Origin: Bdellovibrionales bacterium
Lineage (GTDB): Bacteria; Bdellovibrionota; Bdellovibrionia; Bdellovibrionales; JAKFYE01
Length of the DNA: 64,000 nt
Reading direction: 5' to 3'
Assembly (NCBI GenBank): GCA_021731045.1
Contig: JAKFYE010000022.1
Coordinates: 43,183-107,182, forward strand
Positions 51,520 to 63,022 of the stretch are shown piece after piece. A model generated the notes under the pieces. That model had not been told where the DNA came from, did not search any database, and was given only the letters and a program-made list of their open reading frames with translations. A program made the position numbers and the translations under genes. Position 1 is the stretch's first letter. Each line of letters starts with the position of its first letter.

Positions 51520-52440
51520 ATGCAGAACATGACGAAAAAAATTAAATCTAAACTCGCACTCCCTTTCGTCATGTTTTTCTTCGCAATTTCATCACAAGCT
51601 CAAGAGACAAACTCATCAGTTTCATCAACCTCATCTTCTACGGAGCTTTCTTCTCCTGAAGGTTCTACACAAACCAAAATTGAAAACATTAAAGTGGAAG
51701 AAAAACCAAAAAAGTTTGGAATTACCGCGCAGATTGAAGGCTCTTCAAATTTAATTGAAGGTGGAAGCTACGAAAGCAGCCGTGAAACATCATACATGGT
51801 GATTCCGAAGTACAAAATTAGCGACAAAATAGCTCTCGGCGCGATTGCGACTTTCGTTCATAATTTAAAACAAGTTGAGGAATCTGATTTTAATAATACC
51901 GAAGTCAGCGCAACTTATGAACCCATCACTCTTATTTCTGACCAATTGACGATTAAGCCTGTTGTGGCTGCAGTTTTACCTACGCACAAGGCAGATCGTG
52001 ACGAGCTATCTCTTTTGGGCGGCATCGGATTAAAACAAGCTTTAATGTACAATATGACCACGAAACTTAAACTACCTGCGAACATAACTTATGGTGCTTC
52101 AGCTCGTCGCAACCTTCATGAATACAATCGTTCGAATGTTGGTAGCCCAAACTCAGAATATTCTTTTAGCAACTTTCTTTTGCTTGAAGTCGATCTTGGA
52201 AAAAAGTTAAGTTTTGCCACGAAGGGCACGGCTCTTTCCAGTCTCACGTATACAAATACGTGGAGGAGTAAGTTTGAAATTTTTGAAGAACTTAGTTACC
52301 AAGTCACCAATGCGGCGTACCTAACTTTAGGCCATGTAAACACGGACGCGACTTTAAAATCAAATATGTCAGATTCAAATATTGAAGTTTTTAATAATAA
52401 CACATCATCGATTTACCTCGATGCTGGCGTGACATACTAG
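51520..52440 (+). CDS. Predicted outer-membrane beta-barrel protein (306 aa)
   Basis: RBS AAGGAG upstream and a signal peptide (FFAISSQA/QE). It has alternating amphipathic strands and a C-terminal aromatic residue (…LDAGVTY). Confidence 0.6.
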   Translation: MQNMTKKIKSKLALPFVMFFFAISSQAQETNSSVSSTSSSTELSSPEGSTQTKIENIKVEEKPKKFGITAQIEGSSNLIEGGSYESSRETSYMVIPKYKISDKIALGAIATFVHNLKQVEESDFNNTEVSATYEPITLISDQLTIKPVVAAVLPTHKADRDELSLLGGIGLKQALMYNMTTKLKLPANITYGASARRNLHEYNRSNVGSPNSEYSFSNFLLLEVDLGKKLSFATKGTALSSLTYTNTWRSKFEIFEELSYQVTNAAYLTLGHVNTDATLKSNMSDSNIEVFNNNTSSIYLDAGVTY

Positions 52441-52450
52441 GGAGAACAGT

Positions 52451-55400
52451 ATGAAAAGGAAGAACGCACTTAGTTTTTTGCTGCTTACAGGGCTAATATT
52501 CATTGGTTGTACGAAAGAACAACCTTATGAATCCCTGTACAAAGAACATCTTCACGACAAGAGCGTGGTCAATGAAAATGCAGAATTTATTTATTTGCCT
52601 TCTGCTGTTGAAGCCGATCGCCAAGCTCCTGGTGGAAGACCTTTCTGGGTAGGTGAACGTAAACTCGTGCATTTTGCTTGGACCGAAACCGAACTTCAAA
52701 TTATTGAAATCGATCCTGATGGTCGTTGGAAAGATAACCCGACCAACGGAAAGTTGGTTCTCAGCATTCCGGTAAAGCATCTTGGATACCGTTGCGCTAA
52801 AGATAAATATGGTGAGTGTACTAATAAAGAAGAAGAAGTTGGCGATGTTCCATTTTCTCAAAAGCCAAGCTTTAAACCAGACATGGGGGCTGCTGCGATT
52901 AGAGAAGTGGATCTTATGCCTATCGAACTCGAAAACTTATTCACGGGTGGTGCGTGTTATAGCGAAACGGGTAAACCTGAACTTATTGGTTACAATTTGA
53001 ATGAAGATGGTTTGAATCTTCAGTTAGAGCGTACATACCAAGCAAGCCCATTTTGCGTAGCAATTAATGAGTGGGAAGACTTTGCAAATTTAAGTTTTAA
53101 AGCACGTTTTAACTATTCAGTTGTGAAATTAGATAAGCTCAAGACTCAAGGTTATGAGCCAATTTCATACCCAAAAACAGATGAAGGGACTTTTGGTTTC
53201 TTCACAACTGAAAAACGCAAACTTGGTCCAGACAACCAAGATCTCGTGACAGGCGCCGAAGTTTTAATGAACCGTTGGAATCCAAAGCGCGGCGAAATTG
53301 TGTATAATTTAAGCCCTTCGTTCGCTAAACCAGAAAACGCATCTATTTTAAATTCCACTCAAAAAGTTGTTGAAAAATTAAATCGTGGTTTAACTGCGGC
53401 TCACTCTGGACTCCAAATTAAACTTGCTATGCCTGAAGGTAGAATTTCAGGTGACTTACACCATAGCGAAATCGTTTTGATTGAAGATCCTATGAAAGTA
53501 GGCTTGCTTGGTTACGGTCCTTCGATCACGGATCCTAAGACAGGAGAAATCTTATGGGCTCGTGTTGCGATGTACTCAGGAGTTATGAAGCAATTTATCT
53601 GGAGAGAGTACAACGCTCTTGTAAAAGAGAAGAAAGAAACAGTTGCAAAGTCTTTAGGTGGTCCGCTTGTTGATTTGAGTGACGAATTAAAAGCAAAAGC
53701 CCAACCCATCAACGGTGGCGGAGACTCTTCGTCTCCAGCTCTTGATATCGCAGGTCTATTATCTCGCACTCAGGATCATCCTGGATTTAAATTTTCAAAA
53801 CTACATACCGATATTTCTGGGGCGAAGCTCGTTCACGGATTGATCGCAAAAGCTCCTACAGGAAAAACGTTTTTAGTTTCTGAGCTTAGAAAAGAAATGC
53901 GCAAGTTAAACAAAGACGACATGACGGCGAAAATGCTTGAGTATATTCGTCATCCGTCTAGCGGAACTTTAAAAGATAGCGATTCGGCTTCAGTTCGCGA
54001 AAAAATTGCGGCTTTGGATCAAACCTCCGCAATCGCATTGACCGGAGCTTTTCCAGCAGAACTTTTCAACTTTCAGGCGGCTATTTCAGCAGGTCAGATT
54101 GAGGATATCGTAGGAACAGACCCGCGCTACTGGGAAGAGCTTTCAGATGACGAGCGGAATGCAATTATTGAAAAAGTTCTCCCTATCGTATGGGAAGCCA
54201 CTTTGATTCACGAAATTGGACATACGCTTGGTCTTAGACATAACTTTGCGGGTTCAGAAGATGCGACGAACTTCTATTCGCATGATGAACTCGAGAATAT
54301 GGGTGTTGATAAACCTGTGCCATACAGTTCCGTTATGGAATACCCTTACAGCGACATCAGCGCTTTGAACACGCTTGGAAAATACGATATCGCAGCACTT
54401 CGTTACGGTTATGCTCGTGAAGTCGAAACGGCTGACGGAAGTATTAAAAACATTGGAACCCAAACACTCAAAGATACAGAATTAGCTGGAGTAACTTTAA
54501 AAAGTTACAGCTATTGTACGGATGAGCATGCAGATGCAAATCCAAACTGTAACCGATTTGATGAAGGTACGAATTACAGCGAAATTTCAAAACAGTTAGT
54601 CTCTTCTGCAGAACATTTCTATGGAATACGTAACTTCCGTAATGGTCGACGTCTCTTCTCGTTGTACACAGATCGCAACTACATTGCGGGAGTAGATGAT
54701 CGCATGTTTGGATTCCGATTGTTCTTTGAGCGATTCTCATCGATTCAAACGAAATTTAAAATTCCCATGGATATTTGGAAAGGCGTTTCTTGTGCGGCGC
54801 CTTACACGCCAGATGATTGTGCCTTCTTGAAAGGTATTTACGATGGTGTGCAAACAGGACTGACATATATGTTAGATACATTAACAACGCCTGATACGAT
54901 TTGTGCGATTGCCACAACGGCGGCGCCAACTAAAATCATTGCACTCGCAAATCTCACCGACATTTCAGACGATGCGATGGATTGTTTCGATGCGAAGATT
55001 AATCCGGTTTACACAATTATTGGTCAGACGGGTAAGAGTTTTAAATCTCGCAAGGCAACGACGAATGAGAATTCTTATGCCGATCAGATCGACGTTCGTG
55101 GAATTTGGGGCGATAAAATTGTGGCATTGGATTACTTGTTGAACCGTCGTTTGGGTTCAAGCCTATTTGATGACGATATCACCGCGTTCTTAGATAACGA
55201 AGATCTCGGTCCGCAAGTGTTGAGCGTATTAGCTGATATTTTATTAGATAATGTGACTCGCACCCTAGAGGTTGAAGTGCCTGCGACTGGTCAGAAAATT
55301 CCGATTCAATGGAGTTACTCACTAGCTGCAACTCATGTGATTCCAGAGCCTTTGGATTCGTCTTTAGCTAAAGTACTTGGTTTAAAAAATGGTATGACGC

Positions 55401-55837
55401 CATTTATTTATCAAGTCGGTCACGCGATCTCGTCTCAAGTTCCACATCCAGCTATGCCTGTCCAAAGTCAGAAGATAGTGGAGTCGTTCTCGGTGGCCGT
55501 TTGTACTTCAAATTGTCCTGCAAAAGATACTGGCGATATTAAAGTAGAAAAAGTGGGTTCGACAAAATACGTTACGAACGCAGATATGTTGATTGCCGGA
55601 AAGCTAATCGATCAAGTTAGAGAGTTCCGTATGTACTCAGTCTTGACGGAAGCTCAAGTTAACAAGATCTACTTATTATTGAATACACCGGGAGCTGATC
55701 TCTCTACGCTTACGCCTGAAGAAAAGTCCATTTACGATTTGGGTTTAGAAAAGCTTGTGGCTTTTGCTCAAGGCGAAATGAAAGACGAAAATACTCTAGG
55801 CATAACGCTTGAGGCGCTACCTAAAATGAATTTCTAA
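52451..55837 (+). CDS. Large lipoprotein zinc metalloprotease (Met-zincin, HExxHxxGxxH type)
   Basis: RBS GGGAG upstream and a lipobox (LIFIGCTKE). The Zn motif TLIHEIGHTLGLRHNF has HEIGH at nt 54209-54223. A downstream SSVMEY lies at 54326-54343. The roughly 585 aa N-terminal and 480 aa C-terminal to the motif have no recognised family. Confidence 0.75.
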   Translation: MKRKNALSFLLLTGLIFIGCTKEQPYESLYKEHLHDKSVVNENAEFIYLPSAVEADRQAPGGRPFWVGERKLVHFAWTETELQIIEIDPDGRWKDNPTNGKLVLSIPVKHLGYRCAKDKYGECTNKEEEVGDVPFSQKPSFKPDMGAAAIREVDLMPIELENLFTGGACYSETGKPELIGYNLNEDGLNLQLERTYQASPFCVAINEWEDFANLSFKARFNYSVVKLDKLKTQGYEPISYPKTDEGTFGFFTTEKRKLGPDNQDLVTGAEVLMNRWNPKRGEIVYNLSPSFAKPENASILNSTQKVVEKLNRGLTAAHSGLQIKLAMPEGRISGDLHHSEIVLIEDPMKVGLLGYGPSITDPKTGEILWARVAMYSGVMKQFIWREYNALVKEKKETVAKSLGGPLVDLSDELKAKAQPINGGGDSSSPALDIAGLLSRTQDHPGFKFSKLHTDISGAKLVHGLIAKAPTGKTFLVSELRKEMRKLNKDDMTAKMLEYIRHPSSGTLKDSDSASVREKIAALDQTSAIALTGAFPAELFNFQAAISAGQIEDIVGTDPRYWEELSDDERNAIIEKVLPIVWEATLIHEIGHTLGLRHNFAGSEDATNFYSHDELENMGVDKPVPYSSVMEYPYSDISALNTLGKYDIAALRYGYAREVETADGSIKNIGTQTLKDTELAGVTLKSYSYCTDEHADANPNCNRFDEGTNYSEISKQLVSSAEHFYGIRNFRNGRRLFSLYTDRNYIAGVDDRMFGFRLFFERFSSIQTKFKIPMDIWKGVSCAAPYTPDDCAFLKGIYDGVQTGLTYMLDTLTTPDTICAIATTAAPTKIIALANLTDISDDAMDCFDAKINPVYTIIGQTGKSFKSRKATTNENSYADQIDVRGIWGDKIVALDYLLNRRLGSSLFDDDITAFLDNEDLGPQVLSVLADILLDNVTRTLEVEVPATGQKIPIQWSYSLAATHVIPEPLDSSLAKVLGLKNGMTPFIYQVGHAISSQVPHPAMPVQSQKIVESFSVAVCTSNCPAKDTGDIKVEKVGSTKYVTNADMLIAGKLIDQVREFRMYSVLTEAQVNKIYLLLNTPGADLSTLTPEEKSIYDLGLEKLVAFAQGEMKDENTLGITLEALPKMNF

Positions 55838-55929: not shown

Positions 55930-56691
55930 ATGAAGATTTCATTTTTCTCCTTATTGTTCTCAGGTTTATTGCTTGGCGTATTATCTTCTGAAATGACATT
56001 CGCAGCTCCAAAAAAGGCAGAGCCTAAACAAGAGCGAGCTGAGGAGACCCTTCAAGAAGACGTCAGTAAGACAGAGCCCTCAATCGCCAAAGATTCAACT
56101 GTGGGTAAAGCCACGCTGTTAGGGATAGAGCTTGGTGGCGTACCGACATTTCTTTTTTCGGACAGCAATATCCAGGCCTTTGGTCTGGGGGTTGGAAGTA
56201 ATATGGGAATTTACGGTGTTTTTCGTAACGATAAGACTCTCGCGATTAAAGCAAGGGTTGAGCATGTCTATTTACGTGAAGAAGCCATGAGTAAAGCTCC
56301 GATGGACTTTTATATTCCGGGAACTTATCTCAAAGCTTTGACTCAAGAATATATGATGTTTGCGGGTGGAGTCGAGTTTCGTCAACCAGGGGTAGGAAAT
56401 CAATTTTTTTATGAAGCCACTTTAGGTTATGCAGTGGGTGTGTCGGGGAGTGCCGAGGTGACGCCTAAAACCGGTACGGCTGTGGTGGAAGGGCGAAACG
56501 TACCACTCGTTTCAACGTTTTTCTTAGGCGGCGGCGCAGGTTTGCGAAGAAAATTTACGGAGAAGCTTTCAGGAGTTGCGAGCGGCCGTACGTTTTTTCT
56601 TTTAGGTACACCATATAAAGGTGATTTAAAAAATAAAATGTTTATTCCTATGCCAATTATGTTGTCGGTCGGATTGGAATATTTTTTATAA
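55930..56691 (+). CDS. Predicted small outer-membrane beta-barrel protein (253 aa)
   Basis: Signal peptide (LLLGVLSSEMTFA/AP), Gly/aromatic-rich alternating strands, and a C-terminal …VGLEYFL. Confidence 0.5.
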   Translation: MKISFFSLLFSGLLLGVLSSEMTFAAPKKAEPKQERAEETLQEDVSKTEPSIAKDSTVGKATLLGIELGGVPTFLFSDSNIQAFGLGVGSNMGIYGVFRNDKTLAIKARVEHVYLREEAMSKAPMDFYIPGTYLKALTQEYMMFAGGVEFRQPGVGNQFFYEATLGYAVGVSGSAEVTPKTGTAVVEGRNVPLVSTFFLGGGAGLRRKFTEKLSGVASGRTFFLLGTPYKGDLKNKMFIPMPIMLSVGLEYFL

Positions 56692-56731: not shown

Positions 56732-58267
56732 CTAGTTTTCGAATCCAAGTTTGAAAAAAATCGGAGTGATAATTGTCGTGTCCCATTTATTATTACGTGT
56801 ATCGGGGCTGTTCTGCGGAACGACTTGATAGATGCCGCGATGATAACGAAACTCGTAACCAATAAAGAACTTGTACGTTGGGTTCCAAGTTAACCCGATG
56901 GTACCCTCGTAGACGTCACCTGAAAGTTTACCGCGATCTTCAATATGAGTAATGGGTTTGTAATAAAGCCCTTCGACCGAGAGTTGGTAATTGCGTGCGA
57001 TGGTTCCGTTAAATTGCGTACCCATAACGAGTCCATTTGTGGTGTACAATTCGTAGCTAGCTGCAGGTGCATTGATAATTTCGTAAACATTCATTTGTCG
57101 ATATCCAATAATAAAGTTTTGATTAAATCCTGGAGTACCAAAGCGTAATCTATTGGTAATCGTGGTGGTCATGTACGGAAGGTCAGCATCAGCTTGATGA
57201 TACTTTCCGTAAGTTAAATCTAGTTGTAAGCCGTAGCCTTCAGTAAAGTAGTAGTTACCTATAAAATTATTGGTCCAAGCTGTACTTTTGGACTCGCCAT
57301 TTTCATAACCGGGGGTATATGTAGATTTATAGGTTTGAGTTAAACTTGTTAATCCGATGCCCCAATAGAATGCAAAGTTACCTGCCGAAATGAGATCTTT
57401 CCGCGCGGTAAAATGTCCTGTTTCAGATAGAACACCTTTTGTTTTTTCGCCTTCTTTAGTTCGCACGGCCCAAGTATATTCGCCGGGCTCAGCAAACGGA
57501 AGTTCGTAGGTTTCCGACTCTGAAATGTTTGTCGGCATCGGAACTGTTTTTTTATCTCCGGTTTCATCGTCGACATAAGACATTTCGATATCGGAGAACT
57601 TCGTGATAGGATCTTTTTGCCATTCTAGGGCAATGGGACGATAAGCGGGAACGGCTTGGTCTTGAACAGGCTTTATGAGTTCAGGCTTTTGAATATCCTT
57701 TTTTTCAACGGTGAAGAGTCGTGGCTCCCCATAGGGACTTTCATAAATCTCTTTATAAATTGTTCGAAGCTTCCACATGTATTCGCCTTCTTCAAGCGTG
57801 TTCAAAGAATATTTTGTGTCCTTAGTTCGCCCTTCAAAGACTTTTTTTCCGGTAGTTTTGTAAATAAAAATTTCGTATTCAGGATTGTCGTCAACCGGTT
57901 TCCATTCAAATTCAACTTTGGGAGGAATTTCAAAATAACTATATTCCACATCATTCTTAGGAGCTTTAAGTTCTGGGGGGTAAGGCGTAACAGAAAATTT
58001 CATGGGTTCTGACCAGTGTCCAGGCTGTTTGTCTTTGTCGACAGCTCTGACCTTATAAAAATAAGTTCCAATATCGAGATTCACGGTGATTGTAGGTTCT
58101 TTTGAAGCTTTTTTTACGACGACTTGTTTGAAGTCTGAAGTTTTAGATACGTAGACATGATAGCCTAATGTGTTCTCGAACGGATCCCAACTGAGCTCAA
58201 CTTCACGAGCTTGAGCGTGAGTTGTGAAGAGAATTAAAATTATGAAAATCATTTTCATCATCTTCAT
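56732..58267 (-). CDS. Secreted protein: three Ig/FN3-like repeats fused to a C-terminal predicted beta-barrel
   Basis: The ATG overlaps the upstream stop (ATGA at 58264-58267). Signal peptide is ILILFTTHAQA/RE. The repeats end in G.Y.[YW]K/A.R (GTYFYKVRA, GEYMWKLRT, GEYTWAVRT). The last roughly 215 aa are Gly/Tyr-rich alternating strands. Confidence 0.6.
   Translation of the reverse strand: MKMMKMIFIILILFTTHAQAREVELSWDPFENTLGYHVYVSKTSDFKQVVVKKASKEPTITVNLDIGTYFYKVRAVDKDKQPGHWSEPMKFSVTPYPPELKAPKNDVEYSYFEIPPKVEFEWKPVDDNPEYEIFIYKTTGKKVFEGRTKDTKYSLNTLEEGEYMWKLRTIYKEIYESPYGEPRLFTVEKKDIQKPELIKPVQDQAVPAYRPIALEWQKDPITKFSDIEMSYVDDETGDKKTVPMPTNISESETYELPFAEPGEYTWAVRTKEGEKTKGVLSETGHFTARKDLISAGNFAFYWGIGLTSLTQTYKSTYTPGYENGESKSTAWTNNFIGNYYFTEGYGLQLDLTYGKYHQADADLPYMTTTITNRLRFGTPGFNQNFIIGYRQMNVYEIINAPAASYELYTTNGLVMGTQFNGTIARNYQLSVEGLYYKPITHIEDRGKLSGDVYEGTIGLTWNPTYKFFIGYEFRYHRGIYQVVPQNSPDTRNNKWDTTIITPIFFKLGFEN
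57404..58207 (-). repeat. Three tandem roughly 85-90-aa Ig/FN3-like coding repeats
   Basis: Protein residues 21-94, 98-187 and 196-288 share the pattern P...(V/I)EF.W......Y.I.I.........T.Y.L..L..GEY.W.(V/L)R. Confidence 0.6.
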
Positions 58268-60408
58268 TTTACAACCGGTGCTCTTAGTTTAGGGGCATTG
58301 AGTTCTTTGTTCAATTCAATAATAAGACGACGAGTTTGGCTTGCAGGCCCTTCAACTTTGTCTTTATCCAAACTTGAAACATTCCAATTATAAATTCCGG
58401 GCTCTAACGGCATCGAAACAAAAGATTCTTTGGCTACGATTTGACTAAGCACCGGCACGCGTTCTTTTGTATTCGGGTTCTCTCGCTCAAGTGTAATTCG
58501 GTAGGAAGCGCTCCCAGCAACTTTTTGCCATTTAAACTCAACAGTGTCGGCTTTTGGTGTCGATTTTTTCGTGTTATTCAGAGGTTCGATTAAAAGAGGT
58601 GCAGGAAGGTTCGAATTAATACGGTACTTCATCGAAAACGGAATGCTGACTTCACGGTCTTGTTTGTCTGTTGGCTTGCCTGCGTCCTTAGGATTAACCC
58701 ATTCGACTTTCCAATAATAATTCGCGCCGCGATCTAAACGTAAAGAATAGCGCGTGCTTTCGATTCCTGATTTTTTTAATGCGGTCGAAAAGTCAGGCTT
58801 TTCTGAAATATAAAATGTAAATGGACCTGCGGAGATAGGTCTTTCAACAGCCCAGCTAAACACGATAGGATCCATCGGATCACGTCGATCACGAGTAACG
58901 GTACTTTGATCCGCCGGCGACTTTAAAATAATTACGGGACCTGAAACGGTCGGTTGCACGACAGCTTTGTGCATAACGCTTTTGCCTACAATATCTCCAC
59001 CAGCATTTAAACATGTAACACTCCAATAATACTCTCCCGGTTTGTTCCATTTCCACAAATACTTAGTCTCTTTGAGTGTGACCTGATTCACAATATTGGA
59101 TTGAGCCGCATCCTTTGAAATGACAAGCTGATATTGATGTGCTTTTTCCGATCGTTTCCATTCGAAGGCAAGAGGGTCATTCAACGTCCAGACAAAACCA
59201 TTTTCTGGAAACAAAAGTTGAGGAATTTGCGCCAAAGTTCGATTGAGTTGAAAAGTAAAAGGAGCGGTTCGTCCTGTTTCGGCATTGTTTTCGCCCAAAG
59301 CTCGAACGCGCCAATAGTATTTTCCTGCTTTTAGACCACTTGCCTCAAATGTTTTATTCGGCGTTGTTTGCGTAATAATCATTTGCGTAAAACCAATGTC
59401 CTTGGAAATTTCAAGTATAAAAACTTTAGGCGCGCCCAGAGCATTCCATGTAAATGTGATTTTATCTTGCTCAGGTTCAAAATCCAAATTGGAATTATTA
59501 GCAGGCGAAACATTTACGACGCGTTTGTCTTCATCGAGTCTTAGTTCGCGCACTTCAGAATAAAATATTTTTCCGTCTTTCATTTTTGTGGATACGCGCC
59601 AATATTGTGTGCCTCTGTTAACAGCGCCACGAACCGCTTGGTGCCCATTTTTACGAAAAGTGATAGTCGTAAAATCAGGTTTCGTGCTTATTTCTAATGT
59701 TTCTTCTTTTAACTCATCATCTAGCATCGTCCAAGTGAACGGATACGTAGTTGTTTTATCAGGATCAAGAATGGAAGTTTTATCTTTGGGCGTATTTAGA
59801 ACTAATGCGACAGCGGCTTGTTTCGCTTGGCCTTTCTCATCGACATTCACTACTTTTTTAGTGGTGATATCCACTTTTTTATTTTGTTTGTCGGTGAGTG
59901 TTGCGGTCCCTTTAGTTACGATGATTTGCGTGTTGTTTTGTGTATCAGTGCGGAGTTTGAGTTCAGCACTTTTCGAGTCTAAAATGGTGTCTTTGACTTT
60001 AATCGAAAGATTTTCGCTTCCGCTTTTTGTTTCGATATCTCCAGTTTTAAAATCAACATTGAGTTGGTTAGCTCGTTTTTCCAAAACAATCAGCGAGTTT
60101 TCGGCTAAAACAATGCTACTTTTGTCTTGCAATTGAATTGTCGCGCTAGAGTCAGTGCCCGTGCGAATAGAGTCATTCGAATATAAATTTTCGTTGCTAC
60201 GTAAAGGATTCCAATACAGTGAATTTCCGAGCTTGCGTTTAACGTTGCTAACTTGTTCCTGAAGAACGCCGATCACCTCAGCTTTTTCTTCAGCGACGAG
60301 AGTGGATTCCTCAGGTTGCGTATCACGCCACAGATAATAGCTGGCAGCTGCCATCAGCATAAAAACAGGAAGTAAAACTAGAGTGTTCTTTAACCACTCT
60401 CGGCCCAA
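58264..60408 (-). CDS. Membrane-anchored FecR-domain protein with five tandem Ig/FN3-like repeats
   Basis: TTG start with AGGAG 7 nt upstream and an N-terminal TM (LVLLPVFMLMAAASYYLW). The FecR-like segment is DSIRTGTDSSATIQLQDKSSIVLAENSLIVLE. Five repeats each end in the G.YYW motif (GTQYWRV, GKYYWRV, GEYYWSV, ANYYWKV, GIYNWNV). Confidence 0.65.
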   Translation of the reverse strand: MGREWLKNTLVLLPVFMLMAAASYYLWRDTQPEESTLVAEEKAEVIGVLQEQVSNVKRKLGNSLYWNPLRSNENLYSNDSIRTGTDSSATIQLQDKSSIVLAENSLIVLEKRANQLNVDFKTGDIETKSGSENLSIKVKDTILDSKSAELKLRTDTQNNTQIIVTKGTATLTDKQNKKVDITTKKVVNVDEKGQAKQAAVALVLNTPKDKTSILDPDKTTTYPFTWTMLDDELKEETLEISTKPDFTTITFRKNGHQAVRGAVNRGTQYWRVSTKMKDGKIFYSEVRELRLDEDKRVVNVSPANNSNLDFEPEQDKITFTWNALGAPKVFILEISKDIGFTQMIITQTTPNKTFEASGLKAGKYYWRVRALGENNAETGRTAPFTFQLNRTLAQIPQLLFPENGFVWTLNDPLAFEWKRSEKAHQYQLVISKDAAQSNIVNQVTLKETKYLWKWNKPGEYYWSVTCLNAGGDIVGKSVMHKAVVQPTVSGPVIILKSPADQSTVTRDRRDPMDPIVFSWAVERPISAGPFTFYISEKPDFSTALKKSGIESTRYSLRLDRGANYYWKVEWVNPKDAGKPTDKQDREVSIPFSMKYRINSNLPAPLLIEPLNNTKKSTPKADTVEFKWQKVAGSASYRITLERENPNTKERVPVLSQIVAKESFVSMPLEPGIYNWNVSSLDKDKVEGPASQTRRLIIELNKELNAPKLRAPVVK
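58312..59802 (-). repeat. Five tandem roughly 90-100-aa Ig/FN3-like coding repeats
   Basis: Residues 203-291, 299-388, 398-484, 493-595 and 603-699 share P...(F/I).F.W......Y.L.IS.D..F........T.......L..G.YYW.V. This is the same repeat type as in the downstream gene. Confidence 0.65.
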
Positions 60409-60517
60409 AGTCGAGTCTCCTAAGATGTAAAACTACTTGATGATCACACTAATAATCATCGGACTATGTCCGTAGACCTTAAGTCTATATTAAGGAGTAC
60501 AGCTTATAGACCGACAC

Positions 60518-63022
60518 GTGATTTGCGTGAAACTAAACTATTCTGTGGGTATCGCCACAAAAATGATTTTTATTGTGACCATCATCGTAATTTCTGCGAT
60601 CGGGGTTGTGGTGTATATTGCCTCGGATTTATTTCGTGAAGACTCAGTGACAAAAGTCCAAGAGACTAACAAAGATTCTGCGGCACAATTGGCTGAGCGC
60701 GTGCACGGTATTTTTTTTGATGCGACTGAAAAAATGACTTTGATGGCACAATTTGCTACTCGCAGTGAGACACCTGAAGAAGCTCAGCGGGCGATCGACA
60801 ATACGCTGCGTGGCAGCGATGAAATCATCACATTCATCGCACAGAAATTTAATGAAAAAGGCGATCCAGAGCTTAAATTTTTTAGTTTTAATGAATCGTC
60901 GCTTGCCGAATTTAATTTGGATCGGAAAAAAATAGAAACTCAGCTTCATTTGGACCTTCTTACAAGGCTTCGTGAGAAACCAAATGAACTTATTTTGATA
61001 AATAGTTCTCCCCAATTTGGAGTTCCGCTATTTACGATTTCATTTTTAAGTCAGTCACACGAAACTACAAAAACCGCAGTGACGACACAGAGTGCGCAAA
61101 CGCCAATATCGCCGGTGGTAAAGAACGAAAAAAATTTGGCAGGGCGTTGGTGGTTTCGTGCGGAGATTCGACATGACCGCGTTTTGAAAGTATTTGCTAA
61201 TAAGAAAATTATCACATCCTACCTTGTCGATGCTAAAGGTAAACTGATGGCACACTCGGACGCTGCAATGAACGCCTCGGTCATTCAAGGTGTAAGCGTG
61301 GCAACAAATCCGATGGTACTAAAAATGTTAGAAAACGAAGCCGATAACCATCAAATGTCGTACCGAGACGATAATGATGAAGCCTATCTGGGAGCTTATA
61401 AAAAAGTGGGCGTTGCCGGCACCGGAGTTATTGCCGAAGTTTCAGAGGCCAAAGCTTTGGCCACGATTCAGCGAGTTCAATATCGATCCTTTTTAGTTAT
61501 GATCGTTGTCGTGTGTATCGCCTTCTTTTTTAATTTTGGATTTTCAAAAAGTCTGACTTCAAATCTTAAAAAACTTTTTTTGGCCACAGAACAAATTGTT
61601 ACGGGTAAGTTCGATGTGGATTTAAAAGTTAAAAGTTCAGATGAAATCGGCGCTTTAGCGAAAGCATTTTTAAATATGACAGAAGGGTTAAAAGAGCGTG
61701 ATAAAATTAAAGGTGTATTTGATAAGTTTCACTCCAAAGAAATTGCAAAAAAACTTTTAAGCGGCGAAATTAAATTGGGCGGTGAGAGAAAACAAGCCAC
61801 GGTCTTTTTTAGCGATATTCGTAGTTTTACGAGTATTTCCGAAAAAATGACACCTGATCAAGTCGTGGGTATGCTAAACGAATATTTTACGGCTATGGTC
61901 AAAATTATATTTCAGCGTCATGGCATAGTTGATAAATACATCGGCGACGCTATTTTGGCCGTCTGGGGAATTCCAGAAAATAAGCCAGGAGATGCACTCA
62001 ATGCCGTTCGCGCATGTTTAGAAATGCGTGATTTTATGAAGCTCTTTAATAAGACGCGCAAATCAAAAAATCTCAGTGAAATAAAAATCGGAATGGGATT
62101 ACACAGTGGCGAAGTGTTAGCCGGAAACATTGGTTCAAATGAACGTCTGGAATATACGGTTATTGGCGATACGGTCAATCAAGCCTCACGTATTGAGGCT
62201 GCTACCAAAGCGTTGGCGGCAGATATTTTAATTAGCGATGCAACTTATACCCTTGTTAAAGAGCAAGGAATTGTTGCAGGTCCAGGTGTATCTGTTAAAG
62301 CAAAAGGAAAATCGCAGCCTTTAACAGTTCATCAGGTGATTGGTTATCTAGATGCTGCTGGCCAACTTATGACATCGCTTTCAGAGGAAGAAATTGAGAC
62401 AATAAATTCAAGCAACACCGAACTAATGGATACAGAAGAAACCAAAACAGAGCGTGTCACTCAGCCATTGGTCCAAACGCCATCCGTCAGAAGTTTTGCT
62501 CCACCGCTAGTTCCGAATGAAATTCCACCACCTGTACCTCGTGCACCCTCAATAAATGCTCCACCCCTGTCGATAAATAGAAATATGATCCAGGAAGATG
62601 AAAACGAAGAAGTTTGGTATGTTGTGCACGATCCGGGCAGCAAAGAGTATCAAGGCCCGATGAGCCTTAAACAATTGGCTTTGAAAGTTCACAACAAACA
62701 ATTCGATTACAACATGGCTTATGCGTTTAAGATGGGCGATAGCCAAATGATACCGATCAATCAACTTCCAGCATTGAATCGTCGCGCCCCAGAACCCCCA
62801 CCGATTACAGCGGCAATTCCTGATACTGTTATTCGAAATCAGGCGCAGGCGCACGAGTGGTACGTCGGTGGACCAAACGGCGAAACTATGGGGCCTTATA
62901 CTGAGGAAAACTTGCGAGTTGCTTTAGAAAACGGAAATATCACGCGCACAACGTATGTTTGGAAAGCCGGCATGCCCAATTGGATTCATTTGTTTGAGCT
63001 TTTCTCTCGACGAGCGTCTTAA
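60518..63022 (+). CDS. Transmembrane sensor adenylate cyclase: periplasmic sensor region, HAMP, class III cyclase, Pro-rich linker, two GYF_2 domains
   Basis: Two TM segments flank a roughly 280-aa exoplasmic region. HAMP spans about nt 61544-61702. The cyclase domain spans about 61796-62345, with metal Asp residues (FFSDIRSF, IGDAILAVWG), Lys in DKYIGD, and IGDTVNQASRIE, all consistent with ATP specificity. The linker is PPLVPNEIPPPVPRAPSINAPP. GYF_2-like segments lie at about 62609-62770 (WYVV...GPMSLKQL) and 62852-63004 (WYVGGPNGETMGPYTEENL...WKAGMPNWIHL). The start is uncertain (GTG 60518 or ATG 60563). Confidence 0.8.
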   Translation: MICVKLNYSVGIATKMIFIVTIIVISAIGVVVYIASDLFREDSVTKVQETNKDSAAQLAERVHGIFFDATEKMTLMAQFATRSETPEEAQRAIDNTLRGSDEIITFIAQKFNEKGDPELKFFSFNESSLAEFNLDRKKIETQLHLDLLTRLREKPNELILINSSPQFGVPLFTISFLSQSHETTKTAVTTQSAQTPISPVVKNEKNLAGRWWFRAEIRHDRVLKVFANKKIITSYLVDAKGKLMAHSDAAMNASVIQGVSVATNPMVLKMLENEADNHQMSYRDDNDEAYLGAYKKVGVAGTGVIAEVSEAKALATIQRVQYRSFLVMIVVVCIAFFFNFGFSKSLTSNLKKLFLATEQIVTGKFDVDLKVKSSDEIGALAKAFLNMTEGLKERDKIKGVFDKFHSKEIAKKLLSGEIKLGGERKQATVFFSDIRSFTSISEKMTPDQVVGMLNEYFTAMVKIIFQRHGIVDKYIGDAILAVWGIPENKPGDALNAVRACLEMRDFMKLFNKTRKSKNLSEIKIGMGLHSGEVLAGNIGSNERLEYTVIGDTVNQASRIEAATKALAADILISDATYTLVKEQGIVAGPGVSVKAKGKSQPLTVHQVIGYLDAAGQLMTSLSEEEIETINSSNTELMDTEETKTERVTQPLVQTPSVRSFAPPLVPNEIPPPVPRAPSINAPPLSINRNMIQEDENEEVWYVVHDPGSKEYQGPMSLKQLALKVHNKQFDYNMAYAFKMGDSQMIPINQLPALNRRAPEPPPITAAIPDTVIRNQAQAHEWYVGGPNGETMGPYTEENLRVALENGNITRTTYVWKAGMPNWIHLFELFSRRAS

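Follow-up and report, generated by a model that had tools for sequence, protein, structure and literature searches.

A conserved FecR-FN3 and FN3-barrel protein pair encoded beside a receptor adenylate cyclase in Bdellovibrionota, a possible periplasm-spanning input module

Introduction

In the FecA-FecR-FecI systems (ferric citrate in Escherichia coli, Fox and Pup in Pseudomonas), a protein that crosses the inner membrane once and has a periplasmic FecR domain (PF04773) is genetically coupled to an outer-membrane barrel, and signals are relayed from the outer to the inner membrane. In Sinorhizobium meliloti, the outer-membrane barrel NsrA is required to activate inner-membrane CHASE2 cyclases (PMC7529298, PMC13001267), and in Campylobacterota a FecR-domain protein clusters with a CHASE2 cyclase (PMC9239204). 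Here we describe a locus that recalls these arrangements, found in a 64,000-nucleotide stretch of a Bdellovibrionales contig (JAKFYE010000022.1, positions 43,183 to 107,182; hereafter the window). It consists of two genes on the minus strand, gene A (58264..60408) and gene B (56732..58267), and of a divergent receptor adenylate cyclase gene on the plus strand (60518..63022). The open reading frame (ORF) of gene A encodes 714 aa with an N-terminal helix, a FecR-like domain, five fibronectin type III (FN3) repeats and a conserved C-terminal tail; that of gene B encodes 511 aa with a signal peptide, a truncated FN3, two complete FN3 and a predicted 10-stranded barrel. We see about an even chance that A and B each supply one half of a periplasm-spanning tether, which would serve as accessory input module of the divergently encoded receptor adenylate cyclase.

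Like FecR in the FecIRA systems, A is predicted to be a single-pass inner-membrane protein coupled to an outer-membrane barrel, and the relay logic would be shared. The components differ. FecR has a cytoplasmic anti-sigma domain of about 85 aa, whereas A has only about 8 cytoplasmic residues; the FecA barrel has 22 strands, whereas that of B has 10, with no plug, TonB box or STN domain. Moreover, FN3 repeats are interposed in A-B, and the adjacent output is a HAMP adenylate cyclase. No extracytoplasmic function (ECF) sigma gene was found among the flanking ORFs within about 5 kb in the window, and the same holds for three contigs of relatives. With a FecR domain present and an anti-sigma domain, a sigma gene and a TonB-dependent transducer absent, the locus is not a FecIRA system. 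A previous sequence-only reading of this DNA had called the FecR-like part of A "anti-sigma-type", a label that we drop in view of the short cytoplasmic segment and the neighbouring genes; an anti-sigma function for A was rejected, as there is no cytoplasmic domain of this kind.

The logic of a barrel acting on an inner-membrane cyclase is common to our locus and to NsrA with CyaK, CyaD1 and CyaD2. NsrA is reportedly one protein of about 1200 aa, whose barrel is large and whose acidic surface loops bind a protein signal from outside; unlike it, the B barrel is almost without loops. The cyclases of the NsrA and Campylobacterota systems have CHASE2 sensors, whereas the sensor of the window cyclase is without CHASE2 and weakly dCache-like in relatives. 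Neither an FN3 chain nor a split junction is reported for the NsrA and FecR-CHASE2 systems, and a tblastn search with the FecR domain of A against plasmids, aimed at S. meliloti pSymB and NsrA, gave no match.

Results

Domain composition of protein A

The AlphaFold2 model of A (predicted local distance difference test score, pLDDT, 84.5) consists of a helix, a short disordered linker, a beta domain, five FN3 domains and a low-confidence tail. The helix (residues 3-30; 60319..60402, minus strand like all the features of A and B) is predicted to be a transmembrane signal anchor, with the motif A.SYYLW.D at its periplasmic end. The all-beta domain at residues 45-200 (59809..60276) is FecR-like: PF04773 matches residues 79-169 with 30.7 bits against a Pfam cut-off of 24, and the match is also recorded for homologues. 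This is the most conserved globular part of A, with a mean column identity of 0.68, and a sequence search of the N-terminal 203 residues against the PDB gave no significant match.

Residues 201-699 (58312..59808) form five complete FN3-like repeats. A family-specific hidden Markov model (HMM), built from complete repeats of both A-type and B-type proteins, places them at 202-292, 294-391, 394-487, 491-600 and 601-699 with E values of 2e-7 to 4e-29, and each covers the model from position 2-5 to 96-98. Their strand-F motifs are GTQYWRV, GKYYWRV, GEYYWSV, ANYYWKV and GIYNWNV. The top Foldseek matches of A are tandem Ig/FN3 chains (E 1e-13 to 1e-19), and tandem FN3 structures are matched with E 5e-13. 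In Pfam, Ig_J is above threshold in A (30.5 against 29 bits) and the fn3 model itself is below threshold in both A and B. Past the repeats lies an orphan C-terminal tail, residues 700-714 (58267..58311; the LNKELNAPKLRAPVVK region), which we propose as a donor A-strand.

At the N-terminus, only eight residues (MGREWLKN) precede a 19-residue hydrophobic stretch that starts at residue 9. Across homologues L26 of the helix motif is invariant and D29 nearly invariant. A pattern [AG]-x-A before S/G-Y-Y-L-W recurs in the close A family and corresponds to A20-A22 in A; the distant homologues P0035, P0038 and P0042 keep the membrane motif and have no AxA site, with F or L at -1. We infer from these sequences an uncleaved signal anchor in the inner membrane, which is favoured over a cleaved signal peptide.

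Domain composition of protein B

Protein B begins with a predicted Sec signal peptide (residues 1-20; 58208..58267) of n-h-c layout and low pLDDT, ending in THAQA before REV. Among homologues A20 is nearly invariant at this cleavage site, and R21 and E22 directly after it are invariant. The first FN3 (residues 21-94; 57986..58207) is without strands A and A' according to DSSP and the HMM, and is the proposed acceptor. An invariant PYPPEL linker joins it to two complete FN3 repeats (residues 95-291; 57395..57985), and residues 292-511 (56735..57394) are predicted to form a 10-stranded outer-membrane beta-barrel with very short surface loops. The AlphaFold2 model, made with 21 homologues, has a mean pLDDT of 88.6 and shows three FN3 sandwiches and ten long antiparallel strands at 298-510. 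The family HMM finds the repeats at 18-94, 94-190 and 192-291 (E 5e-16 to 6e-32), with the strand-F motifs GTYFYKV, GEYMWKL and GEYTWAV, and Foldseek matches the N-terminal part to tandem FN3 structures with E 8e-9. Repeat 2 is the most conserved part of B (0.72).

A separate observation concerns this second repeat (57790-57985, B residues 95-160), where there is an invariant loop Y/K-T-T-G-K-K..E (T138, T139, G140, K142 and E145); it could be a further binding site.

Thr makes up 11.8% of the barrel region, Gly 10.5% and Tyr 10%, and most strands show alternating hydrophobicity. In the model, the loops away from the termini have 7, 4, 7, 4 and 8 aa and the turns on the side of the termini 4, 2, 2 and 2 aa, and an 8-residue linker without helix leads from the last FN3 to strand 1. 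The C-terminus, FFKLGFEN, has Phe at -3 and a terminal Asn; homologues end in FEN, LEH, WEY or WEF. The best barrel matches by Foldseek are OpcA (1k24, template modelling score 0.58 on target) and the Legionella porin 9nh1 (0.51). Pfam gave only sub-threshold Ig-like matches for B and no barrel family, and the B profile found nothing significant among PDB sequences.

The termini of outer-membrane barrels usually lie on the periplasmic side. An even number of strands puts both barrel ends of B on one side, so the FN3 chain would be periplasmic, and in the model the barrel looks like an anchor, neither a ligand receptor nor an autotransporter. Two candidate classes for B were rejected. A type Va autotransporter has a 12-stranded barrel with a helical linker, against 10 strands and a non-helical linker of 8 residues here; a TonB-dependent transducer does not fit a 10-stranded barrel with FN3 that has no Plug, TonB_dep_Rec or STN match.

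Taken as a description of domains, the sequence-only reading holds up well. It had seen a membrane helix, a FecR domain and five repeats in A, and a signal peptide, three repeats and a C-terminal barrel in B, and the Pfam, HMM and AlphaFold2 results above agree with it. The single repeat family that it assigned to both proteins is found by the HMM in all eight repeats, far beyond chance (BLASTP of A against B, E 9e-11), a G.Y.W.V-like motif is present in each of them, and the Foldseek check that it suggested returns Ig/FN3 sandwiches. It had also placed both chains in the periplasm, as do the side of the barrel termini, the signal peptide of B and the predicted topology of A.

The junction between A and B

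The first repeat of B has six strands in the AlphaFold2 model, compared with eight in repeats 2 and 3 (DSSP), and mature B starts (R21-E22-V23) directly at strand B. Coverage of the repeat HMM tells the same: it runs from position 1-5 to 96-98 in seven of the eight repeats of A and B and only from 19 to 96 in repeat 1 of B. In all eight downstream partners examined (B of the window and seven others, including those of Leptospiraceae), the first FN3 starts at HMM position 18-25; about 45 other repeats in these proteins start at position 2-8, with two exceptions.

Past strand G of its fifth repeat, A continues with NKELNAPKLRAPVVK. The tail ends in APKLRAPVVK and carries an AP.L..P signature as in the openings of repeats (PPELKAPKND in B, LPAPLLIEP in A). 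It is predicted to be disordered in the monomer, with pLDDT of 58 and 46 in the last two 10-residue blocks, and it is the most conserved stretch of A: the mean identity of the last 10 residues is 0.83, compared with 0.55-0.68 for the domains, and all 11 sequences share APKL and the terminal K. The Pseudobdellovibrionaceae locus L009 has the very same tail (APKLRAPVVK), although the B homologue there is only 38% identical to B. In L049 it is kept behind a 35-aa Pro/Thr linker that follows the last FN3, and the FecR-FN3 proteins of Leptospiraceae type end in comparable P.I..P...V.E tails. The simplest reading of these sequences is that one FN3 domain is split between A and B, with the signal peptide of B at the split, and that the tail of A would fill the place of the missing edge strand.

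The adjacent receptor

A receptor with one common periplasmic sensor domain and a HAMP domain adjoins the FecR-FN3 gene in all 12 loci examined, which come from two phyla (the window, three Bdellovibrionota contigs, L012, L013, L049, L007, L004, L008, L005 and L006). The output domain is an adenylate cyclase in ten of these loci and a SpoIIE phosphatase in the other two. The conserved unit is one of three genes, including the divergent sensor-HAMP-adenylate cyclase, and reaches beyond the two genes of the sequence-only reading.

In the window, the product of the receptor gene (834 aa) has a transmembrane segment, a periplasmic sensor of about 300 aa, a second transmembrane segment, HAMP, a class III adenylate cyclase domain and GYF_2. 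Pfam places HAMP at 343-392, Guanylate_cyc at 425-600 (PF00211, 101 bits) and GYF_2 at 781-825. The catalytic domain matches Pseudomonas aeruginosa CyaB (3r5g) with E 3e-36; FSDIR, DKYIGD, YTVIGD and VNQASR are aligned, and the metal-binding and the Lys/Thr substrate residues are in place. The Lys/Thr pair is presumably adenylate-specific, as in class IIIb cyclases, and we read the product as a probably active adenylate cyclase.

Every other cyclase partner has a sensor homologous to that of this cyclase (residues 1-345), the Leptospiraceae one being matched with E 3e-22. Moreover, both SpoIIE receptors score 45-57 bits in their N-terminal regions against a profile of the cyclase sensors. Because the profile recognizes the SpoIIE receptors too, the partnership is with the sensor domain and not with the output domain: by homology, what stays the same beside the FecR-FN3 protein is one sensor domain plus HAMP, and the output can vary. 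CHASE2 gave no match in the window cyclase or its relatives, even at E up to 1, and the sensor domains of the relatives have weak dCache_1 matches. As a further observation, residues ~660-834 of the cyclase (window 62500-63022) consist of a Pro-rich linker and GYF_2-type domains, with a W..Y..G motif near residue 700, and this GYF tail is conserved in the Bdellovibrionota partners.

Conservation of the pair and its relatives

The sources of both A-type and B-type proteins are metagenome assemblies of Bdellovibrionota, and the lengths of the contigs that carry the one type correspond to those that carry the other. When species-representative genomes were scanned, full-length relatives turned up in Bdellovibrionota only. 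Eleven full-length homologues of A (35-71% identity) were obtained. Besides the protein of the window, B has 22 homologues with 37-74% identity, of which 20 are full length (490-522 aa) and two are fragments (309 and 378 aa). A search with the barrel only, among 1.84 billion representatives, returned just 22 proteins, so that on sequence the barrel family of B is very narrow.

The sequence-only reading had made its proposal depend on the pair being conserved elsewhere, and it is: in the window and in nine further Bdellovibrionota loci the A and B genes or their homologues adjoin or overlap each other, and in one additional locus 3 kb separates them. In three Bdellovibrionota contigs (40-48% identity), the divergent HAMP-cyclase-GYF gene is followed by A and then B, with a 4-nt overlap of A and B in one, and a 1-nt overlap or abutting genes in the other two. 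L049 has the same three genes, a 4-nt overlap of A and B, and only four FN3 domains in A; L012 and L013 have the three genes with an A-B gap of 40-47 nt. In L009 (558-7500), where the two homologues are about 3 kb apart, an unrelated gene for 286 aa lies between them on the opposite strand.

Distant FecR-FN3 proteins, with 22-26% identity to A, extend the comparison. In L007 such a protein (22% identity) is accompanied by a dCache-HAMP-cyclase and by a 542-aa protein of three FN3 and a barrel. The Leptospiraceae locus L004 (GCA_016711485.1, 4879-11255) has, in one transcription direction, a cyclase, a 1038-aa FecR protein with eight FN3 and a 381-aa partner, and L008 (2-5709) has a cyclase, a FecR-FN3 protein and a 402-aa partner. 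The third gene of this spirochaete version encodes an LIC11435-family protein, made of a truncated FN3, a TIG-like domain and a DUF5683-like helical membrane region; the Leptospiraceae partner matches the family over its full length with 152.6 bits. The neighbouring locus tag LIC11436 of Leptospira interrogans, which may be the FecR-FN3 gene, is listed in a review as a fibronectin-binding protein (PMC11350617).

In L005 and L006, the FecR-FN3 gene adjoins the HAMP-SpoIIE receptor gene. The L005 protein P0037 (MBL7715788.1, L005:7001-10279) is encoded by one contiguous ORF, in which an N-terminal helix is followed by FecR, six FN3 and a C-terminus that resembles a barrel. Its alignment with B is colinear (hhalign probability 98.8), and its FN3 corresponding to the truncated one is complete. 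If real, P0037 would be a single polypeptide anchored in both membranes. In L006, the FecR-FN3 protein P0040 (7001-8902) has no conserved tail and no B-like partner, and the gene downstream of it encodes a PAS/Hpt histidine kinase.

Transcription unit and neighbouring genes

Genes A and B overlap by the ATGA stop/start sequence that the sequence-only reading had pointed out, located at 58264..58267 on the minus strand (gta aaA TGA aga tg). Gene A starts with TTG, 7 nt downstream of an AGGAG ribosome-binding site. In gene B, the ATG in the overlap is the most upstream of several, as further in-frame ATGs follow (MKMMKM). Since the flanking genes are divergent on the upstream side and convergent on the downstream side, A and B are predicted to be a two-gene operon, with the receptor gene upstream and a small gene for an outer-membrane-protein-like (OMP-like) product downstream. 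The intergenic region between A and the cyclase gene (60409..60517, no strand assigned) measures 109 bp and presumably contains the promoters; a simple sigma-70 scan for promoters and a scan for terminators, covering the operon and this region, found none above shuffled expectation.

The genes flanking A-B encode the sensor-HAMP-cyclase, a beta-eliminating lyase, two OMP-like proteins without Pfam match and a Met-zincin. The OMP-like protein convergent with B has 253 aa (55930..56691). Further downstream of B are the Met-zincin (1128 aa; DUF4953, HEIGH motif, lipoprotein-like N-terminus; 52451..55837) and the other OMP-like protein, which is Ser-rich (306 aa; 51520..52440). A DUF4953 protein is also found near the B homologue in L001 (8360..11995), and the neighbourhood may be partly conserved.

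Discussion

A possible mechanism

We regard the locus as a real, conserved three-gene envelope module of new architecture, with a mechanism that is plausible and computationally unproven at its key step, the docking of the tail. In this mechanism A would remain anchored in the inner membrane with its FecR domain near the membrane, and B would be anchored in the outer membrane. The tail of A (APKLRAPVVK-COOH) would insert as the missing A strand of the first FN3 of B, by split-domain or donor-strand complementation. Joined in this way, the five repeats of A and the three of B would give a single rod of eight FN3; an FN3 domain is about 3.5 nm long, and the rod would measure about 25-30 nm, long enough to cross the periplasm. 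The FecR domain would contact the periplasmic sensor of the cyclase and possibly its transmembrane helices, much as FecR links a protein of the outer membrane to an output at the inner one. Because so little of the barrel is exposed at the surface, the likely signal would be a condition of the envelope (how far apart the membranes are, or whether the outer membrane is deformed or damaged) or a periplasmic ligand of the FN3 rod rather than an external ligand, and the output would be cyclic AMP (cAMP). Translational coupling through the ATGA overlap would provide A and B in equal amounts.

A wider claim strikes us as possible, if rather doubtful: that a non-covalent rod of split FN3 joins the membranes (in Leptospira, with a partner anchored in the membrane otherwise) and works, both in predatory Bdellovibrionota and in spirochaetes, as a mechanical or distance sensor that gates a dCache-like/HAMP receptor, whose output is cAMP or a PP2C phosphatase.

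Several observations weigh against the tether and its mechanism. Taken alone, LNAPKLRAP aligns to HMM positions 2-10, the start of a repeat, with E 0.5, which is not significant, and appending the tail to mature B lifts the HMM score from 47.0 to 53.1 bits, a modest gain of 6 bits. At the other end, A20-A22 is a possible AxA site, cleavage after A22 is possible, and A might leave the inner membrane. The contact between FecR and the sensor is inferred from gene neighbourhood and analogy, and the nature of the signal is speculation. The FecR-FN3 proteins P0040 and P0042 are without such a tail, and P0040 is also without a B-like neighbour; because of them, the outer-membrane anchor appears not to be obligatory in the wider family, and is an optional addition to a core pairing of FecR-FN3 protein and sensor. 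The single-chain P0037, a lone metagenome-assembled sequence, has limited weight, and a search with its barrel found no relatives, though the query itself also failed to come back. A second apparent fusion, the 1108-aa P0066 (L049:5965-9407; APKG-RDVSFSW at the joint), was rejected as a gene-calling artefact: the DNA has two ORFs overlapping by 4 nt, and the product skips 80 nt, which removes the last residues of A and the signal peptide of B in the manner of a called intron. Seeming fusions in the same representative protein library need checking against the DNA.

Alternative explanations

The signal peptide of A might be cleaved after all, leaving A soluble and held by B like a fishing line, with FecR reaching the sensor only under some envelope conditions; this can be likened to the lipoprotein RcsF reaching IgaA. 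Such an arrangement would accommodate the junction, the synteny and the periplasmic FN3 as well as the tether does, and the AxA-like pattern does recur in the close A family. We consider it unlikely, though, as 19 hydrophobic residues are long for a signal peptide and AlphaFold2 gives a continuous helix from 3 to 30. Moreover, the SYYLW.D after the putative site is conserved like a membrane-interface motif, and P0035, P0038 and P0042, with F or L at -1, are unfit for signal peptidase I. A and B could also be a purely structural tether or spacer in the manner of Lpp, OmpA or Tol-Pal, beside which the cyclase is merely co-located. The minimal-loop barrel does resemble a plain anchor, and the FN3 modules are rigidly linked (the PYPPEL linker is invariant); but in 12 of 12 loci from two phyla a receptor with this sensor is the neighbour, whatever the order, orientation or output, and A has a FecR domain, whose characterised role is in signal relay only. 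This explanation is improbable in our view. The sequence-only reading itself had let the two chains meet through homotypic repeat contacts, that is, laterally between the FN3 of A and of B, which gives no special role to the tail or the truncated FN3. It fits the shared repeat family and the co-translation of the two genes. Nothing else indicates such contacts, and they would leave unexplained the truncated first FN3 in every partner examined, the top conservation of a disordered 10-residue tail, and the same junction in Leptospiraceae partners that have one FN3 of the family; the sequence points instead to a joint of tail and truncated FN3, and we find lateral contacts quite improbable.

That the two genes are the remnant of a neutral fission, in which an ancestral single protein was split, A and B are now independent or one is decaying, and the tail is left over, would agree with the single-ORF form P0037. 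It is very improbable: neither ORF is disrupted, and each is kept by purifying selection across 35-74% identity; no domain is as conserved as the tail; and the signal peptide of B lies exactly at the split, whose position is common to distant lineages. Least credible to us is a surface adhesin of autotransporter type, in which the FN3 of B would be exported through its own barrel, possibly for contact with prey. N-terminal passenger-like repeats followed by a C-terminal barrel recall type Va autotransporters superficially, and for A the first-ranking Foldseek match is an Ig-like chain from the grappling hook of a predatory bacterium (9flp). Against this, the barrel has 10 strands and not 12, with an 8-residue linker and no pore-filling helix; the even strand number leaves the N-terminal end of strand 1 in the periplasm with the C-terminus, and A has no route across the outer membrane.

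Significance

To our knowledge, sensing of the envelope state or of periplasmic width is known in few Gram-negative systems, namely Rcs, Cpx/NlpE, sigma-E and those of FecIRA type. The present locus suggests another solution, in which an FN3 rod of a defined number of units, anchored in both membranes, would be plugged into a second-messenger enzyme. If this is true, an Ig-like domain split over two polypeptides would put strand complementation to a new use, outside the assembly of pili, and the FecR domain would be a general adaptor from envelope to receptor, beyond its place as an anti-sigma module. In predatory Bdellovibrionota the envelope is under extreme events during prey invasion. The related form in Leptospiraceae concerns a family in which FecR-domain proteins and cyclases are numerous and unexplained.

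Comparison with known systems

The split proposed here has its closest structural parallel in chaperone-usher pili and the type V pili of Bacteroidia, where an Ig-like domain without an edge strand is completed by an extension at the end of a second polypeptide; in type V pili, removal of an N-terminal strand leaves a groove that a C-terminal strand then occupies. A and B would differ in that the exchange links two unlike envelope proteins a single time and involves neither polymerisation nor a chaperone, usher or protease, and their complementation is predicted from sequence.

The Leptospira LIC11435 family (NCBIfam NF047756) shares with our locus the layout of three genes, the cyclase sensor and the split. 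Its partner protein has a TIG-like domain and a DUF5683-like helical membrane region, where B has two FN3 and a beta-barrel instead. B is not a member of the family: its score is 17.7 bits, where the cut-off is 380, and no part of it other than the first FN3 is matched. OpcA (PDB 1k24), the best structural match to the barrel of B, likewise has ten antiparallel strands and a similar size. At about 9% identity there is no relationship on the level of sequence, and B differs in its very short external loops and in the periplasmic FN3 chain at its N-terminus.

The sequence-only reading had known of no described system with this architecture. In the literature we found no paper on the combination of FecR-FN3, FN3-barrel and cyclase, and to this extent the statement stands; it does not extend to the elements of the system, as clusters of FecR and cyclase genes and signalling from a barrel to a cyclase have been published (PMC9239204, PMC7529298). 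Compared with these systems, FecR-FN3, FN3-barrel and cyclase together are probably a periplasm-spanning input device for cAMP that has not been described before.

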